From Eledone cirrhosa (Eukaryota), in NCBI GenBank assembly GCA_964016885.1, contig OZ024746.1, positions 91,760,001 through 91,824,000 on the forward strand: a stretch of 64,000 nucleotides of DNA. The letters are read 5' to 3'. Of the stretch, positions 3,359 to 62,759 are shown piece after piece; positions within the stretch are counted from its first letter, which is position 1, and each line of letters starts with the position of its first letter. The position numbers and the translations under genes were made by a program. The notes below the pieces were generated by a model. It was not told the DNA's origin. It did no database searches and saw only the letters and a program-made list of their open reading frames with translations.

Positions 3359-4335
<977 letters not shown>

Positions 4336-4378
4336 TATATATATATATATATTATATATATATATATTATATATATAT

Positions 4379-4506
<128 letters not shown>

Positions 4507-4567
4507 GTATATATATTTATATATACTGTATATGTATATACCGTATATATATATATATATATATATA

Positions 4568-5390
4568 ATTGGTGTGGGATGCTTAAAGTGTCCATATGCG
4601 GTATGTCGTTTGAGCACTCGATGCTCTTACAGAGCAGAATATAATATCACACAAGAAACGGAGAATCAATCGTGCGACGAATTAAAATTTATTAGACATA
4701 TTACAATCGTTTCTCTGGCGACCAGCTCGAGGCACGATCGATTCAATGATCGAACCTGACTCTGAAATCGCAAGATCCTCAGATACGTCTCGATTTTTCG
4801 AAGCAGAGTTTCCAAATGTCCAGTTAAACTTGCGGCCTTCTCTCGCAAGCTTGTGTCCTGTTGTTGTCTGTCGATGAATGGTCAAGAATTGTACACGTCA
4901 TCGGTATTTCTGACCACTCATGACCGTCATTTTTCTGGTTCCATTCATATGTCACCTGTCAATCAAAGTTGTTTCTTTTAGCAGAGTTACTGCTGTAGGA
5001 GGCAAGAGGCTGTATGTTTGGAACGCTCGCGCCCTGCCGCAGCGTTCCTGGCCTCTAAACGGCCACACCCATCTCCATGTTTCGCGCAGGCGTGATACAT
5101 ATACACACCCGCAACTGTATTATATACGAAAATCACAGTAAATATTAAATGTACAGCGAATACTTAGAAAGAATTTTTTAATGGTGGAAAAACATTTTTA
5201 AAAACAACGTTTCAGAAAAACACACCCTCAAAATACCTTAAAAGCATAAGCATGAAATCGCAAGATCCTCAGAGTCAGGTTCGATCATTGAATCGATCGT
5301 GCCTCGAGCTGGTCGCCAGAGAAACGATTGTAATATGTCTAATAAATTTTAATTCGTCGCACCACTGATTCTCCGTTTCTTATGTGATAT
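4568..5390. mobile_element. Family B fold-back element in (TA)n
   Basis: 4645-4764 is the reverse complement of 5270-5390. The left terminus aattggtgt(g/t)ggatgcttaaag is shared with 6433. Confidence 0.85.
4695..4789 (-). ncRNA. Type I hammerhead motif with long stem II (family B)
   Basis: Minus strand: gacgtat-CTGAGGA-tcttgcgatt...ggtcgccaga-GAAA-cgattg-TA-atatgtc, then taataaa. Confidence 0.8.
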
Positions 5391-18282: not shown

Positions 18283-18316
<34 letters not shown>

Positions 18317-18951
18317 GATTTTGAGTATATGTTGGTTGTATAACAACACCTCAGTATGCAGGCTGGAGCACTCGACGAAGTGCGCAGGTTGGTTTGGTTA
18401 CTCCGGAGTAATGTAAAATAAAGTTAAATAAAAAGTCAAATGTTTAAAATTTAGCTTCGTTTATTACTGCTATATATATTTCGGTGACAGCCATCTTTGG
18501 CTGTGACCTCTTCAGGCAGTCCGAATTAGTGTGGTATAGACAAGTACATATGTTGTTGAGGTGTATAATTTTGTCAATACTCTGATATGCCCAGTTCCTG
18601 GTTGGGTTGTTATTTCACTGAGGAAATAACAACCCAACCAGTTCCTCACTGAATTAACAACCCAACCAGGAACTGGGCATATCAGAGTATTGACAAAATT
18701 ATACACCTCAACAACATATGTACTTGTCTATACCACACTAATTCAAACTGCCTGAAGAGGTCACAGCCAAAGATGGCTGTCACTGAAATATATATAGCAG
18801 TAATAAACGAAGCTAAATTTTAAAGATTTGACTTTTTATTTAACTTTATTTTACATTACTCTGGAGTAACCAAACCAACCTGCGCACTTCGTCGAGTGCT
18901 CCAGCCTGCATACTGAGGTGTTGGTATACAACCAACATATACTCAAAATCT
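18317..18951. mobile_element. Family C ~635-bp near-perfect palindrome in (TA)n with HHRs at 18466-18520 (-) and 18747-18801 (+)
   Basis: Arms of about 305 bp. HHR: actgc-CTGAAGA-ggtcacagcca-aaga-tggctgtcact-GAAA-tatata-TA-gcagt, then aataaa. Confidence 0.92.
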
Positions 18952-18994
18952 CTCTCTATATATATATAAATATATATATGAGCGTGTGAGTGTG

Positions 18995-23996: not shown

Positions 23997-24594
23997 ATGA
24001 AATGAAAATGACAAAAATATAAAACAAACATAAAACCCCATAGACAGGGTGGAAATCATAGACAGGGTGGAAACCATAGACAGGGTGGAAATTTTGGGTG
24101 ACTTGCACTTTCTGAAGAGAAATCATAAAGGAAAGAATTTAGTGTGAGATTTGGAAAGTATGATGGAGTAGGGGTGACAATATGAAGATAACCTGGGGTA
24201 TTCTAGGGTGAAGTGACACACCCTACTACTTCAAAGGTCATTATGACTATTGTAGTAATCAAAATAAAACTTGTTGTGTGAGTGTCAACATTATTAACTC
24301 TTTCATCTGAAGACTGCCACCCTACTTCAACCCTAATATGTCATCTGACTTGTGGTCCCGGACAATAGGATGGAGAAGATACTGCCTTAGAGGAGGGCAA
24401 GGGAGACATGCTGGAACAGCCACTCCATCTCATGGGGATCACACATGCGAGCAGCCAACTCTGATCTGATAGCAGTGAGCAAGGATGTGGTCTGGGGGCC
24501 AAGAACTCTGGAAGTCTCCATTGCTCAACCACAGACCTATCAGAAAGTGGCTGATAAGCTGAAAAGAAATACAGCATCTGATTGCTAGTGAATG

Positions 24595-26945
24595 TAGTGT
24601 GTTGGTGAGGGAATCCTTGTTGTTCAGCTGGGTGGTTTATTGTGGTGTGTTGGAGAGGGGAATCCCTGTTGTTCAGCTGGGTGGTTTGTTGTGATGTGTT
24701 GGCGAGGGAATCCCTGTTGTTCAGCTGGGTGGTTTGTTGTGATGTGTTGGTGAGGGAATCCCTGTTGTACAGCTGGGTGGTTTGTTGCAATGTGTTGGTG
24801 AGGGAAGGTCTGTTGTTCAGCTGGGTGGTTTGTTGTGGTGTGTTGGTGAGGGAATCCTTGTCATTCAGCTGGGTGGTTTGTTGTGGTGTGTTGGTGAGGG
24901 AATCCCTGTCATTCAGCTGGGTGGTTTGTTGTGGTGTGTTGGTGAGGGAATTCCTGTTGTTCAGCTGGGTGGTTTGTTGTGGTGTGTTAGTGAGGGAATC
25001 CCTGTTGTTCAGCTGGGTGGTTTGTTGTGGTGTGTTGGTGAGGGAAGGTCTGTTGTTCAGCTGGGTGGTTTGTTGTGGTGTGTTGGTGAGGAAATCTGTG
25101 TCATTCAGCTGGGTGGTTTGTTGTGGTGTGTTGGTGAGGGAATCCCTGTCATTCAGCTGGGTGGTTTGTTGTGGTGTGTTGGTGAGGAAATCGGTGTCAT
25201 TCAGCTGGGTGGTTTGTTGTGGTGTGTTAGTGAGGGAATCCCTGTCATTCAGCTGGGTGGTTTGTTGTGATGTGTTGGTGAGGGAAGGTCTGTTGTTCAG
25301 CTGGGTGGTTTGTTGTGATGTGTTGGTGAGGGAATCCATTGTTCAGCTGGGTGGTTTGTTGTGGTGTGTTGGTGAGGGAATCCCTGTCATTCAGCTGGGT
25401 GGTTTGTTGTGGTGTGTTGGTGAGGGAATCCCTGTTGTTCAGCTGGGTGGTTTGTTGTGGTGTGTTGGTGAGGGAATCCCTGTTGTTCAGCTGGGTGGTT
25501 TGTTGTGGTGTGTTGGTGAGGGAATCCTTGTCATTCAGCTGGGTGGTTTGTTGTGGTGTGTTGGTGAGGGAAGGTCTGTTGTTCAGCTGGGTGGTTTGTT
25601 GTGGTGTGTTGGTGAGGGAATCCTTGTCATTCAGCTGGGTGGTTTGTTGTGGTGTGTTGGTGAGGGAAGGTCTGTTGTTCAGCTGGGTGGTTTGTTGTGG
25701 TGTGTTGGTGAGGGAAGATCTGTTGTTCAGCTGGGTGGTTTGTTGTGGTGTGTTGGTGAGGGAATCCCTGTCATTCAGCTGGGTGGTTTGTTGTGGTGTG
25801 TTGGTGAGGGAAGGTCTGTTGTTCAGCTGGGTGGTTTGTTGTGGTGTGTTGGTGAGGAAATCCGTGTCATTCAGCTGGGTGGTTTGTTGTGGTGTGTTGG
25901 TGAGGGAATCCTTGTCATTCAGCTGGGTGGTTTGTTGTGGTGTGTTGGTGAGGGAATCCTTGTCATTCAGCTGGGTGGTTTGTTGTGGTGTGTTGGTGAG
26001 GGAAGGTCTGTTGTTCAGCTGGGTGGTTTGTTGTGGTGTGTTGGTGAGGAAATCCGTGTCATTCAGCTGGGTGGTTTGTTGTGGTGTGTTGGTGAGGGAA
26101 TCCCTGTCATTCAGCTGGGTGGTTTGTTGTGGTGTGTTGGTGAGGGAATCCTTGTCATTCAGCTGGGTGGTTTGTTGTGGTGTGTTGGTGAGGGAAGGTC
26201 TGTTGTTCAGCTGGGTGGTTTGTTGTGGTGTGTTAGTGAGGGAATCTCTGTCATTCAGCTGGGTGGTTTGTTGTGGTGTGTTGGTGAGGGAAGGTCTGTT
26301 GTTCAGCTGGGTGGTTTGTTGTGGTGTGTTGGTGAGGGAATCCTTGTCATTCAGCTGGGTGGTTTGTTGTGATGTGTTGGTGAGGGAAGGTCTGTTATTC
26401 AGCTGGGTGGTTTGTTGTGATGTGTTGGTGAGGGAATCCCTGTTGTTCAGCTGGGTGGTTTGTTGTGGTGTGTTGGTGAGGGAATCCCTGTCATTCAGCT
26501 GGGTGGTTTGTTGTGGTGTGTTGGTGAGGGAAGGTCTATTGTTCAGCTGGGTGGTTTGTTGTGGTGTGTTGGTGAGGGAATCCCTGTCATTCAGCTGGGT
26601 GGTTTGTTGTGGTGTGTTGGTGAGGGAATCCCTGTTGTTCAACTGGGTTGTTTGTTGTGGTGTGTTGGTGAGGAAAGCCCTGTTGTTCAGCTGGGTGGTT
26701 TGTTGTGGTGTGTTGGTGAGGGAATCCCTGTTGTTCAGCTGGGTGGTTTGTTGTGGTGTGTTGGTGAGGGAATATCTGTTGTTCAGCTGGGTGGTTTGTT
26801 GTGGTGTGTTGGTGAGGGAATCCCTGTTGTTCAGCTGGGTGGTTTGTTGTGATGTGTTGGTGAGGGAAGCCCTGTTGTTCAGCTGGGTGGCTTGTTTGGG
26901 TGTATTGGTGAGGGAAGGTCTGTTGTTCAGCTGGGTGGCTTGTTT
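24595..26945. repeat. 48-bp minisatellite, about 49 copies
   Basis: tgttggtgagggaatccctgttgttcagctgggtggtttgttgtggtg, giving 16-aa periodicity in the ORF track. Confidence 0.95.
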
Positions 26946-29330: not shown

Positions 29331-29760
29331 GCAGAGGTTATATTTAATTTGTTGGGATTCAACAAGCTTAAACATTTTTATAACTGATATAAAGCACTCA
29401 ACAGATTATTGGGGTAAATACACAATATATTAATAAATGGAAACTATATTTATAAAACCATATTTATTTTATTATATATATTTCAAGGGCAACCAAGGAA
29501 AATTATGGTGCGCTTTCATCAGATAAAATACAGATTTGTTTTATAAATAAATATTGACATACCCAGAAAAAAGACAACCTTCCTATCCAGGAAGCTCCAA
29601 CCGTTAAGGTTGTCTTTTTTCTGGGTATGTCAATATTTATTTATAAAACAAATCTGTATTTTATCTGATGAAAGCGCACCATAATTTGCCTTGGTTACCC
29701 TTGAAATATATATAATAAAATAAATATCATTTTATAAATATAGTTTCCATTTATTAATAT

Positions 29761-29766
<6 letters not shown>
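29331..29766. mobile_element. Family E fold-back element in (TA)n with HHRs at 29465-29530 (-) and 29657-29722 (+)
   Basis: Arms ~29422-29581 and ~29605-29766. HHR: tattttat-CTGATGA-aagcgcaccataatttgccttggttaccctt-GAAA-tatata-TA-ataaaata. Confidence 0.9.
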
Positions 29767-29826
<60 letters not shown>

Positions 29827-51400: not shown

Positions 51401-51463
<63 letters not shown>

Positions 51464-51465
<2 letters not shown>

Positions 51466-51627
51466 CGAAGGAAATGTGGTAAGCAACCAGGTGGACCATA
51501 ACGCACCAAAGTACTCAATACTTAGGGTAGTAGAGTGGGTAATAGGAACGAGTAGGACCCCGACGGCTGAGCTCAAGCCGTTTCGACGGCTAATTCTGGA
51601 CTCAGTCCAGAATTAGCCGTCGAAACG
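51464..51627 (-). mobile_element. Family D terminus abutting the 3' side of the Penelope-like element
   Basis: Palindrome gtttcgacggctaattctggactcagtccagaattagccgtcgaaac, with (TA)n on the left. Confidence 0.85.
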
Positions 51628-53380
51628 AAAATTTCTTTAAGTCGTTTGGAAGCCTCGACAATGCAGATGGGTAAATCTCCGGGTAACAAGATCCGGTGGT
51701 GGAGAGAGAGATATAAGTGGGTGTACGTTGAGATGCGTGGCGTGTATAAGACTGTAACGTGTAGAGGAATGAAGCAAAGAGCGTAAAGGATAAAAATAAA
51801 AATAACAACACGAGAAAGAGTTATCTTGGGAGAGATTTAATTGTCCCTATATATTTCGGATTCACATCCATCAACTGGGTTTTTTTCCGGGGGAGATTGT
51901 CTGTCGGAAAGGTGCAAAACATGTCCTCCGCTGTTCGTTGTTTTGAATATCTGCGGTATTCAGCAGAGCGCGCGTGCGCGTGAAATGGGGTCGGTCAGGC
52001 AGAGGCCAGCGGCCGAAGTAGTTCTTTCAATTGTGGGAGTGGGGTGGCGCTAGCTGTCAGTCCATTCTCTGCCTGTTTGGTGAATGTTACTGTGTGTGTG
52101 TGTGTGCGTGTGTTGTTGTCTCGTTTGAGTGTGTGTGCGTGTGTTGTTACCTTGTTCCTCTGTATTGGCAGTGTAGTATGTTCGTATGGTGGAATGCTAC
52201 TGTGTGTGTGTGTGCGTGTGTTGCTGTCTCGCTTGTGTGTGTGTGTGCGTGTGTTGCTGCATCGTTTGTTAACTTAAACCAACCACCCCATTTCGCTTCT
52301 CTCGGATCGGTTGTTTAGTTGTGGCCCTAGGCGTTTGATCCAAAGTGCTTCCTTGATACGTAACGTGCCGACGTTTCTTTCTGTCGCTAGAATTGTGAGA
52401 ATGGGTCTTCCGTCTTTGTTTCCGCATTTGGCTATGTGTTTCCGGAAAGACGAGGCCCTGGTTTTAGTGTGTTCCTTGATCCGGATGTGCAACGGCCGGA
52501 TTGTGCTACCTATATAGTATTGGTTGCACTTGTTACATTCTATCTTATACACGACGTATGTGCGTAGGCAACAGTTCGCATGGCGCACCGGGTTGTCTCT
52601 GAGGGAGTACGCGTCAGTTGAATTCCCAGGTTTCCTGGAGAGGCATCTTCGCAGGAGGGGCCCGAGTGCGCCAGGTGGATGTCGAGGCCTTCCCTCCGTA
52701 TAGCCTTGCGGATAGCGTTGGTGGTATTCTCACCCAGGTGTGGCATTTTAAGGAAGCACTTACCTTGGGTGCCTCTCTGTCTCTTGTGTCTGGTGTCTCT
52801 TACTCTGTCTGTGAGCGAGGTAGGGTACCCGTTCGTCTCCAGCACCTCGATGAATCGCTTGGTATGAGTGACACCACTCGCGGGATCGCTGCATCTGTTT
52901 TTGATTCGCGCGATCTCGTTCGTGATGTATCCTCTTTTGGCACTGTTAGGGAGGGCGGACTTGTAGTGGACGAACAGGTCCCTGCAGGCTGCCTTTCGGT
53001 AGAAGTTGCAGTGGATCCCTCCCTGTTCCGTGATGTTGATTCGGAAGTCGAGGCGGGCAAGTGACCCGTCGTCGTTGGGGTGTTCAATACTGAAGTCAAT
53101 GTTCTTGTCCGTGTTGTTGAACGTCTCGTAGATTCTATTCGCCATGTCTTGGTAAGATGTGAGGATGAGGATATCGTTCACGTACCTTGAGAAAAAGGCG
53201 ACGGCGTTGGGGTGGCAGGCGTTGAGTGCCTTGCGCTCGAGGCTGTCCATGTAAGAGATCGCTAGCACACCCGACAGGCTTGATCCCATGAGCAGTCCCG
53301 AGGTTTGTTGGTATGTTTGGTCAAGGAATCCGAAGTAGGTGTTGTCGACGACGATGGATAGGAGTTGGTGGATGTCAGTG

Positions 53381-53383
<3 letters not shown>
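51628..53383 (-). mobile_element. 5'-truncated Penelope-like element (RT + C-terminal GIY-YIG endonuclease), frameshifted
   Basis: QTSGLLMGSSLSGVLA, SRYVND (YVDD position), LDFRI, FYRK, HYKSALP, TNGYP; then VVYKIECNKCNQYYIGSTIRPLHIRIKEH...KEALWIKRLGPQLN (52274-52588). 5' end abuts (TA)n. Confidence 0.93.
51845..51879 (-). ncRNA. Degenerate hammerhead in the 3' region of the Penelope-like element
   Basis: Minus strand: cc-CAGTTGA-t-ggat-gtga-atcc-GAAA-tata-TA-gg. Two substitutions in the core. Confidence 0.45.
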
Positions 53384-53427
<44 letters not shown>

Positions 53428-56713: not shown

Positions 56714-57258
56714 TTGAGTTTATGTTGGTTGTATACCAACACCTCAGTATGCAGGCTGGAGCACTCGACGAAGTGCGCAGGTTGGTTTGGTTACTCCGGA
56801 GTATTGTAAAATAAAGTTAAATAAAAGTCAAATGATTAACATTTAGCTTCGTTTATTACTGCTATATATATTTCAGTGACAGCCATCTTTGGCTGTGACC
56901 TCTTCAGGCAGTTTGAATTAGTATGGTATAGACAAGTACATATGTTGTTTAGGTGTATAATATTGTCAATACTCTGATATGCCCAGTTCCTTGTTTGGTT
57001 GTTAATTCACTGAGGAACTGGAGTCATATGACTCCAGTCATATGACTCCAGTTCCTCAGTGAATTAACAACCAAACAAGGAACTGGGCATATCAGAGTAT
57101 TGACAATATTATACACCTAAACAACATATGTACTTGTCTATACCATACTAATTCAAACTGCCTGAAGAGGTCACAGCCAAAGATGGCTGTCACTGAAATA
57201 TATATAGCAGTAATAAACGAAGCTAAATTTTAATCATTTGACTTTTATTTAACTTTAT
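56714..57258. mobile_element. Family C fold-back element in (TA)n with HHRs at 56858-56912 (-) and 57157-57211 (+)
   Basis: Highly similar to 18317-18951. Right arm shorter. Axis contains agtcatatgactcc twice. Confidence 0.92.
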
Positions 57259-57910: not shown

Positions 57911-58107
57911 GTTGATGATGATGATGGCGATGATGATGGTGATGATGATGATGATGATGATGATGATGTTACCGTTGAATTACATGGCCGTGAGAGGGCA
58001 GAGAGGGTATTACATAGCTGTGAGGGGGGCTGTGAGAGTATTACATGGCCGTGGTGACCCCCTTCGGAGGGGAGAACAGTGAAGCCTGGGCTTGTAGCCG
58101 AACACGC

Positions 58108-61100
58108 CAGGTCGTTGCTAGAGACAGTGCTGTGTCTTAACACAATGACCCCCGTGTCAGACCAGGTCGTTGCTAGAGACAGTGCTTTGTCTTAACCCAA
58201 TGACTCCCGTGTCAGACCAGGTCGTTGCTAGAGACAGTGCTGTGTCTTAACACAATGACCCCCGTGTCAGACCAGGTCGTTGCTAGAGACAGTGCTGTGT
58301 CTTAAAACAATGACCCCCGTGTCAGACCAGGTCGTTGCTAGAGAGAGTGCTGTGTCTTAACCCAATGACTCTCGTGTCAGACCAGGTCGTTGCTAGAGAC
58401 AGTGCTGTGTCTTAACCCAATGACTCACGTGTCAGACCAGGTCATTGCTAGAGACAGTGCTGTGTCTTAACACAATGACCCCCCTGTCAGACCAGGTCGT
58501 TGCTAGAGACAGTGCTGTGTCTTAACCCAATGACTCCCGTGTCAGACCAGGTCATTGCTAGAGACAGTGCTGTGTCTTAACACAATGACCCCCGTGTCAG
58601 ACCAGGTCGTTGCTAGAGACAGTGCTGTGTCTTAACCCAATGACTCCCGTGTCAGACCAGGTCGTTGCTAGAGACAGTGCTGTGTCTTAACCCAATGACT
58701 CCCGTGTCAGACCAGGTCGTTGCTAGAGACAGTGCTGTGTCTTAACCCAATGACTCCCGTGTCAGACCAGGTCGTTGCTAGAGACAGTGCTGTGTCTTAA
58801 CCCAATGACTCCCGTGTCAGACCAGGTCGTTGCTAGAGACAGTGCTGTGTCTTAACCCAATGACTCACGTGTCAGACCAGGTCATTGCTAGAGACAGTGC
58901 TGTGTCTTAACCCAATGACTCCCGTGTCAGACCAGGTCGTTGCTAGAGACAGTGCTGTGTCTTAACCCAATGACTCACGTGTCAGACCAGGTCATTGCTA
59001 GAGTCAGTGCTGTGTCTTAACCCAATGACTCCCGTGTCAGACCAGGTCGTTGCTAGAGACAGTGCTGTGTCTTAACCCAATGACTCCCGTGTCAGACCAG
59101 GTCGTTGCTAGAGACAGTGCTGTGTCTTAACCCAATGACTCCCGTGTCAGACCAGGTCGTTGCTAGAGACAGTGCTGTGTCTTAACCCAATGACTCCCGT
59201 GTCAGACCAGGTCGTTGCTAGAGACAGTGCTGTGTCTTAACCCAATGACTCACGTGTCAGACCAGGTCATTGCTAGAGACAGTGCCGTGTCTTAACCCAA
59301 TGACCCCCGTGTCAGACCAGGTCGTTGCTAGAGACAGTGCTGTGTCTTAACCCAATGACTCCCGTGTCAGACCAGGTCGTTGCTAGAGACAGTGCCGTGT
59401 CTTAACCCAATGACCCCCGTGTCAGACCAGGTCGTTGCTAGAGACAGTGCTGTGTCTTAACACAATGACTCACGTGTCAGACCAGGTCGTTGCTAGAGAC
59501 AGTGCTGTGTCTTAACACAATGACTCACGTGTCAGACCAGGTCGTTGCTAGAGACAGTGCTGTGTCTTAACACAATGACCCCCGTGTCAGACCAGGTCGT
59601 TGCTAGAGACAGTGCTGTGTCTTAACACAATGACTCACGTGTCAGACCAGGTCGTTGCTAGAGACAGTGCTGTGTCTTAACCCAATGACTCACGTGTCAG
59701 ACCAGGTCGTTGCTAGAGATAGTGCCGAGTCTTAACCCAATGACTCACGTGTCAGACCAGGTCGTTGCTAGAGACAGTGCTGTGTCTTAACCCAATGACT
59801 CACGTGTCAGACCAGGTCGTTGCTAGAGATAGTGCCGAGTCTTAACCCAATGACCCCCGTGTCAGACCAGGTCGTTGCTAGAGACAGTGCTGTGTCTTAA
59901 CACAATGACTCACGTGTCAGACCAGGTCGTTGCTAGAGACAGTGCTGTGTCTTAACACAATGACTCACGTGTCAGACCAGGTCGTTGCTAGAGACAGTGC
60001 TGTGTCTTAACACAATGACCCCCGTGTCAGACCAGGTCGTTGCTAGAGACAGTGCTGTGTCTTAACACAATGACTCACGTGTCAGACCAGGTCGTTGCTA
60101 GAGACAGTGCTGTGTCTTAACCCAATGACTCACGTGTCAGACCAGGTCGTTGCTAGAGATAGTGCCGAGTCTTAACCCAATGACTCACGTGTCAGACCAG
60201 GTCGTTGCTAGAGACAGTGCTGTGTCTTAACCCAATGACTCACGTGTCAGACCAGGTCGTTGCTAGAGACAGTGCCGTGTCTTAACCCAATGACTCACGT
60301 GTCAGACCAGGTCGTTGCTAGAGACAGTGCTGTGTCTTACCACAATGACTCACGTGTCAGACCAGGTCGTTGCTAGAGACAGTGCTGTGTCTTAACACAA
60401 TGACCCCCGTGTCAGACCAGGTCGTTGCTAGAGACAGTGCTGTGTCTTAACACAATGACTCACGTGTCAGACCAGGTCGTTGCTAGAGACAGTGCTGTGT
60501 CTTAACCCAATGACTCACGTGTCAGACCAGGTCGTTGCTAGAGACAGTGCTGTGTCTTAACACAATGACCCCCGTGTCAGACCAGGTCGTTGCTAGAGAC
60601 AGTGCTGTGTCTTAACACAATGACTCACGTGTCAGACCAGGTCGTTGCTAGAGACAGTGCTGTGTCTTAACACAATGACTCACGTGTCAGACCAGGTCGT
60701 TGCTAGAGACAGTGCTGTGTCTTAACACAATGACTCACGTGTCAGACCAGGTCGTTGCTAGAGACAGTGCTGTGTCTTAACCCAATGACTCACGTGTCAG
60801 ACCAGGTCGTTGCTAGAGACAGTGCTGTGTCTTAACACAATGACCCCCGTGTCAGACCAGGTCGTTGCTAGAGATAGTGCCGAGTCTTAACACAATGACT
60901 CACGTGTCAGACCAGGTCGTTGCTAGAGACAGTGCTGTGTCTTAACACAATGACTCACGTGTCAGACCAGGTCGTTACTAGAGACAGTGCTTTGTCTTAA
61001 CCCAATGACTCACGTGACAGACCAGGTCGTTGCTAGAGACAGTGCTGTGTCTTAACACAATGACTCACGTGTCAGACCAGGTCGTTGCTAGAGACAGTGC

Positions 61101-61458
61101 TGTGTCTTAACACAATGACTCACGTGTCAGACCAGGTCGTTGCTAGAGACAGTGCTGTGTCTTACCACAATGACTCACGTGTCAGACCAGGTCGTTGCTA
61201 GAGATAGTGCTGTGTCTTAACCCAATGACTCACGTGTCAGACCAGGTCGTTGCTAGAGATAGTGCCGAGTCTTAACACAATGACTCACGTGTCAGACCAG
61301 GTCGTTGCTAGAGATAGTGCCGAGTCTTAACCCAATGACTCACGTGTCAGACCAGGTCGTTGCTAGAGATAGTGCCGAGTCTTAACACAATGACTCACGT
61401 GTCAGACCAGGTCGTTGCTAGAGAGTGCTGTGTCTTAACACAATGACCCCCGTGTCAG
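58108..61458. repeat. 55-bp minisatellite, about 61 copies
   Basis: ccaggtcgttgctagagacagtgctgtgtcttaacccaatgactcacgtgtcaga. Confidence 0.95.
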
Positions 61459-62520: not shown

Positions 62521-62557
<37 letters not shown>

Positions 62558-62757
62558 GGAACAAGTAAGACCCCGACGGTTGAGCTCAAGCCGTTTCGAC
62601 GGCTAATTCTGTACTAATTCAGTACAGAATTAGCCGTCGAAAGGGCTTGAGCTCAGCCGTCGGGGTCTTACTTGTTCCTATTACCTACTCTACTACCCTA
62701 AGTATTGAGTACTTTGGTGCGTTATGGTCCACCTGGCTCCTTACCACATTTCCTTCG

Positions 62758-62759
<2 letters not shown>
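62558..62759. mobile_element. Family D fold-back element in (TA)n
   Basis: Arms 62558-62614 and 62622-62678. Right arm: cagaattagccgtc-GAAA-gggct-tgagctc-agccg-TC-ggggtc. Confidence 0.9.

Follow-up and report, generated by a model that had tools for sequence, protein, structure and literature searches.

At one locus of the Eledone cirrhosa genome, the remnant of a Penelope-like element (PLE) and a short hairpin of a repeat called family D are fused to each other between two (TA)n tracts, which raises the question of whether the enzyme encoded on one side of the joint mobilises the hairpin on the other. The initial annotation took the locus for a candidate mobiliser of this kind, with family D either as the terminus of the coding element or joined to it by a template switch between two PLE RNAs. 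The locus lies in a window of 64,000 nt (G000:C6:91760001-91824000), by which is meant the whole stretch of DNA that was analysed, and the genome searched comprised 3.0 Gb. The parts that had been described, namely (TA)n, a minus-strand PLE ORF remnant, a hammerhead-like motif and family D, are all in place, and two different PLE sequences do meet here, referred to below as family A and family B:

51424-51463, no strand: target tract of (TA)n next to the Hydra stub's long 3' end, the tailed one
51464-51602, minus: long arm of family D, the last 139 nt of the pseudo-LTR (pLTR) of family B, a Hydra-clade PLE
51464-51541, minus: 78-nt tail within the D long arm, beyond the short end at 51542
51558-51598, minus: 3' half of the family B type I hammerhead (predicted structure)
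51596-51602, minus: zone in which D arms stop (D positions 133-143), with initiator-like sequence; putative RNA 5' end
51604-51627, plus: what is left of the inverted short arm, 24 nt (D 139 to 116)
51628: single extra A at the fusion joint
51629-52273, minus: family A 3' UTR and pLTR, without the tail
51753-51824, minus: putative small intron in the family A pLTR, suggested by splice motifs, bounds approximate
51845-51879, minus: non-canonical minimal hammerhead-like motif of family A
52274-53383, minus: family A ORF, 5'-truncated and frameshifted, with the C-terminal half of the RT, thumb, Cys linker and GIY-YIG
53384-53424: (TA)n tract where family A is truncated at its 5' side

Family D spans 51464-51627 in total, and three further copies lie in the window (28296, 49246 and 62555-62759). 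The annotated hairpin is present at the fusion but incomplete: after the 139-nt long arm come a single C and 24 nt of a short arm that usually measures 61 nt, 36 nt of the short arm being missing. The hammerhead half in the stub consists of the 3' strand of helix II, GAAA, helix III, GUC and the 3' strand of helix I; the cut is predicted between 51562 and 51561, and the 5' core is absent from the stub. Beyond the joint, family A begins 3 nt inside its own short 3' end. This copy of A is dead, being truncated at its 5' side near residue 554 of a 923-residue frame, with a 1-nt deletion near 52656 and YVND in place of YVDD. Its minus-strand frames matched Pfam GIY-YIG above the cut-off (E 4.8e-6) and, for the RT-thumb frame, RVT_1 below the cut-off (E 4e-5). 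The donor of the putative intron reads GT in 159 of 168 matches and AT in the window copy. The 12 letters across the joint (51623-51634) are the same as the sequence that follows D position 139 in the family B subfamily L053; the RT may have gone back briefly to B RNA ahead of a switch, or the match could be due to chance.

A and B are distinct families: both have intact ORFs and TA flanks, and each has a pair of 3' ends of its own. Family A encodes a single ORF with an RT plus a C-terminal GIY-YIG nuclease, matched by Pfam RVT_1 and GIY-YIG. Intact frames of 881 aa (L159) and 923 aa (L158) were found, the full frame being present in 2 of 30 loci. A search with the first 597 nt gave 40 scored places, 38 of which start at or just inside window position 51629. 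Copies run into TA directly at the short end, and at the long end with a tail of about 42 nt in between. An unbiased sample of A ends was formed from 97 of the first 100 listed matches to the A-end pattern, and 92 of these ends lie at TA, as the annotation had led one to expect; three are pLTRs inside tandems and two lack TA. A pLTR upstream of the ORF was seen at 3/97 ends. Where both arms were matched, a long end was paired with a short end at all 16 loci, as read by eye. By eye, a 4-bp hairpin also follows each of the two 3' ends of A in the RNA sense (L003, L028).

The motifs of family A include DKG and, in the nuclease, CCHH, both of which are common to Penelope/Poseidon and Neptune and so are not diagnostic alone. 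The CX2-5CxxC linker before the nuclease is complete in L066, and its third Cys is replaced by Arg in L068, L158 and L159. Compared by eye with the Nematis rows in Fig. S2 of PMC8557442, as far as that figure goes, family A is alike in DKG, CCHH, the short Cys linker before GIY-YIG, and the RT4 and nuclease C-terminal stretches; it is unlike them in the Arg at the third linker position of most copies and in its non-canonical hammerhead core. By these motifs family A resembles Nematis, a placement made against named clades by eye; 13 homologs were found, none carrying clade names. The Naiad clade was rejected for both A and B, since an N-terminal GIY-YIG would be expected and both carry the nuclease at the C-terminal side. 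At L069 2956-6300 another PLE family was seen, which is about 65% identical to A and has a canonical minimal hammerhead core.

The motif at 51845-51879 had been called a degenerate hammerhead. A hammerhead-like motif is there, and the same non-canonical variant is found in nearly all A copies, so that on sequence comparison it is a family-wide variant and not decay of the window copy. An Rfam scan of the 64-kb window gave no matches, the motif included, and its single-strand fold compared with shuffled sequences gave a z of -0.14. In an alternative parsing of the motif, helix I is followed by a 7-nt core in which positions 4 and 6 have changed places, then by a bulge, by helix II (4 bp, with a GNRA loop), by GAAA and by loop III, which is palindromic. 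At the predicted cut of the motif, or just inside it, three long copies of A begin.

Some D copies extend 1.3 kb into a GIY-YIG frame that differs from that of family A. A search with this frame, which belongs to family B, gave 108 scored matches, and 30 loci, 28 of them independent, were examined. D lies downstream of a Hydra-type ORF in 30/30 of these and also upstream of it in 11 full-length copies. Intact ORFs of 719-721 aa are present in 9 of the 30 loci; all nine contain DKT, CxCX5C, CxxC and CxH, CCHH is absent as read by eye, and the RWK position reads RWR in eight. Between the A and B proteins, alignment is limited to 105 aa of the nuclease, at 28% identity. TA stands before the long end in 92/101 family B arms. 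The pLTR-to-pLTR spacing of B is about 3.5 kb, owing to a 1.1-kb 3' UTR. A search for homologs of B gave 654, and the 120 listed are 37-53% identical and carry no clade names.

The Hydra clade, in the available portions of Craig et al. 2021 (PMC8557442), consists of C-terminal EN+ PLEs such as Hydra-1_Obim and Hydra-1_Ajap. Family B is like the clade as described there in DKT, CxCX5C, CxxC, CxH and the lack of CCHH, as well as in the C-terminal GIY-YIG, the pLTR hammerhead and the (TA)n targets. It is unlike it in RWR instead of RWK, in a U3-A8 hammerhead core with a long helix II, in its tens of thousands of stubs, and in its length of about 3.5 kb against generally less than 3 kb, the latter being a general trait of the clade and not a strict criterion. 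Protein and hammerhead differ by eye from those given for Hydra-1_Obim, which makes B another family. Family D is the pLTR of family B, which this motif signature places in the Hydra clade.

A three-helix type I hammerhead fold with position 7 free is predicted in the B pLTR. Its core has U3-A8 in 57 of 74 matches, a C3-A8 mismatch in 16 and U3-G8 in one (loci not deduplicated), and the single-strand fold is not unusual against shuffled sequences (z 0.28). The U3-A8 core is one that family B has in common with the hammerheads of Schistosoma PLEs, as described in the accessible part of PMC4209133. The D tail is also predicted to fold into a hairpin, a diverged D subfamily has a different hairpin centre (L035, L060, L352), and short tandem arrays of D pieces and TA were seen in L238 and L354.

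D stubs arise by truncation of an autonomous element and do not constitute a parasite. Three other identities were considered for D and rejected: a non-autonomous partner of A, as the termini are not common to the two and the parent of D has its own enzyme; a MITE or DNA transposon, as the arms are unequal, the breaks variable and the parent encodes an RT; and a non-LTR retrozyme. D is like the non-LTR retrozymes treated in the available part of bioRxiv 10.64898/2026.07.22.740005 in that both are hammerhead-bearing non-coding repeats tied to PLE pLTRs; it is unlike them in that its stubs are dispersed, not tandem units, and each carries only half a ribozyme.

Recurrence of the joint was assessed across the genome with exact patterns, which miss mutated copies, so all such counts are lower bounds. 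D arms number at least 40,979, D tails at least 42,646 and D hairpins at least 10,344, and A ends at least 3,285. By exact pattern, D is joined to an A 3' end at two places genome-wide, the window and L002, and the two joints differ; the 51627/51628 junction, which the annotation had proposed to follow through the genome, is unique. Both fusions lie within 10 nt of one of the two 3' ends of A, and an exact pattern about 100 nt deeper in A gave no D joints genome-wide. Direct contact with D was seen in 2 of 57 best-match A loci. The layout of D short end, (TA)n and A end was found at 12 places with a tight pattern and at 3/97 sampled A ends, and about 2-4 of 101 D arms, read by eye, join non-TA DNA directly. 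From these small counts and exact patterns, about 0.2-4 fusions would be expected by chance, against two seen.

The window fusion was probably produced in two steps, by insertion of both elements into one TA tract and a small loss. In this account a dead, 5'-truncated A copy would have become fused to a 164-nt stub of family B after A and B had inserted successively into the same (TA)n tract, with the TA spacer subsequently lost together with 36 nt from D and 3 nt from A. The fusion probably came about because both insert into the same TA repeats. No empty-site allele was seen. The window D has no private changes, against 3.1 predicted from the rate in A (1.9%), a hint that D was a later arrival than A; the hint is weak, since 9 of 24 unbiased D arms likewise have none. 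The locus joins two PLEs of known kinds; such fusions are rare, and the event is an ordinary one.

A single insertion with a template jump across PLE clades is a minority route and rather unlikely at the window. Primed on the Hydra RNA, the RT would have run off it at about position 139, turned back on itself for 24 nt of copying, and then gone on along RNA of family A from that family's short start site. Template jumps have been proposed for PLEs in PMC3846280, and no cross-mobilisation is reported there between the PLE types that were compared. The joints lie at A start sites in both fusions and none lies deeper, as a jump would predict; the difference (2 vs 0) is not significant, and two successive insertions fit the count as well, the frequency of fusions not being above the TA-neighbour expectation. 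The inverted 24 nt are more simply the remnant of an ordinary hairpin, and the slightly younger appearance of the window D also speaks against a joint arrival. A jump is more attractive at L002 (L069 428-2874; G000:C1, near 359258430), the strongest candidate for a jump between clades: there an A insertion that is complete and two-armed carries D 1-139 ahead of its long arm, the joint lies exactly at the D stop point and inside the A tail, and the ages of both parts match. The further PLE family in L069 adjoins this fusion. In a third fusion, L156 1204-3075 (G000:C17, near 7282770; also L361), the D long arm is likewise broken at 143-146, and D stands head-to-head with a 1.7-kb internal A fragment, with neither TA nor an A 3' end.

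Collapse of the assembly between the palindrome and the TA tract is very improbable as the origin of the joint. Palindromes and microsatellites are difficult to assemble, and among the pieces listed from four DNA contig sets of one study none spans the junction, so that the junction rests on the assembly; with repeats of such high copy number, however, contigs do not reach the length needed to cross it, and the missing span says little. The extra base at the joint is not part of a repeat, the second fusion has another joint, and the flanks on both sides are unique. Two-step insertion into a shared TA tract is retained as the preferred account.

That family D is the terminus of A, or that A is a helper mobilising D hairpins, has in its favour the physical contact at the window and L002 and the (TA)n used by both families, and is highly unlikely given two joints, each different, among 3,285 A ends, the tailed and untailed ends that A has of its own, and an abundant parent of D with intact ORFs whose two ends are those of the stubs. 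As a statement that D is the terminus of A, this reading is refuted, and family A is almost certainly not the mobiliser of D. The suggestion that the TA preference is due to a GIY-YIG nuclease agrees with the literature, but in the case of D this would probably be its own enzyme.

How the stubs themselves arise was considered from their arms and ends. Among unbiased D arms, 73 of 99 have an inverted partner, and a partner that reaches an end is of the other kind, long with short. A and B are like the PLEs of PMC11167929 and PMC3846280, in the parts available, in their head-to-head arms, their AT-rich targets and the fixed position of their two 3' ends, between which lies a tail that measures about 42 nt in A and 78 nt in B; they are unlike them in that arms pair long with short nearly always, some pairs have no overlap, and B stubs stop at a single sharp edge. 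For Poseidon_Ac, two internal RT start sites and priming of both DNA ends in vitro are reported in PMC11167929, and self-priming has been proposed for inverted PLE copies in PMC3846280. In L190, L226 and L227 there is no overlap between the D arms; such pairs count against the self-priming proposal and rule out pure fold-back synthesis of D hairpins. By analogy with Poseidon_Ac, D hairpins would fit two-site priming of both DNA ends better than self-priming. The RT of each family would prime both DNA ends of a cut TA tract, and priming at two fixed RNA sites, the long and the short end, would yield head-to-head arms. Of these products D hairpins would be the shortest, and they are probably copies that ran off after priming within the RNA's 5' pLTR. 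The window contains further long fold-back repeats (18288-18979, 56811-57258, 29415-29772 and 3749-4573), which are probably two-armed insertions of further families, and long minisatellites at 58107-61458 (55-nt units) and 24593-26944 (48-nt units).

The ends of 101 D long arms fall at 73-131 (39 ends), 132-144 (53) and 300 or beyond (7), with none at 172-299; the two others, at 147 and 171, proved on inspection to be alignment artefacts, leaving none truly at 144-299. Short arms that reach 132 stop by 143 in 43 of 46 cases, after correction of four chance matches. TYAKTY is the Drosophila-type initiator. The last 456 nt of B contain only two matches to this Drosophila consensus, with A+1 at 139 and 143; one or other of these sites is retained in 60 of 62 related long copies. 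The human initiator consensus BBCA+1BW, as given in the available part of PMC5287114, fits D 143 and 134. Family A shows smaller peaks, with 10/97 ends at 355-367, adjoining a BBCA+1BW site, and 12/97 at 256-281, around the hammerhead-like motif. PLE promoters are known to lie in the 5' pLTR.

The stop edge is most simply read as the place where the RT, once primed in the 5' pLTR, runs off the RNA at its 5' end; this reading is about as likely as not. A block by a protein or a structure would give a similar edge. Against run-off, the initiator match is post hoc and the consensus comes from other animals. Full-length B copies do not start at the edge: 10 of 11 extend upstream of it, which under run-off would need a tandem RNA or strand transfer, and only L118 begins at 138. 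A candidate TATA box for B was rejected, being too close (about -25 to -18) and not kept across subfamilies. Hammerhead cleavage was not supported as the cause of D stubs: positions 94-98 account for 6 of 101 ends, where the background is about 0.7 per nt. A search of the literature outside subscription journals found no description of the stop edge of the D stubs.

A wider proposal, which joins run-off to strand transfer and is tentative, is that PLE stubs may be strong-stop-like cDNAs. The RT would prime both target ends in the 5' pLTR and run off the RNA at the transcription start, and the run-off would fix the stub length, at 133-143 in D and near 367 in family A. The free end would normally transfer to the 3' pLTR, so that the promoter would be rebuilt as a partial tandem, and a rare transfer to the RNA of another PLE clade would give fusions such as L002. 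If true, this would mean that pLTRs form by LTR-like strand transfer in a telomerase-related retroelement.

With these results a false helper-parasite link is removed, and family D is assigned to a Hydra-clade element that is abundant and has intact ORFs. The locus itself is of little importance, and the stop edge of the stubs may matter more. The stubs bear on how PLE pseudo-LTRs and head-to-head copies are formed, and the tens of thousands of them that end at one initiator-like site would make a precise prediction for the RNA 5' ends.
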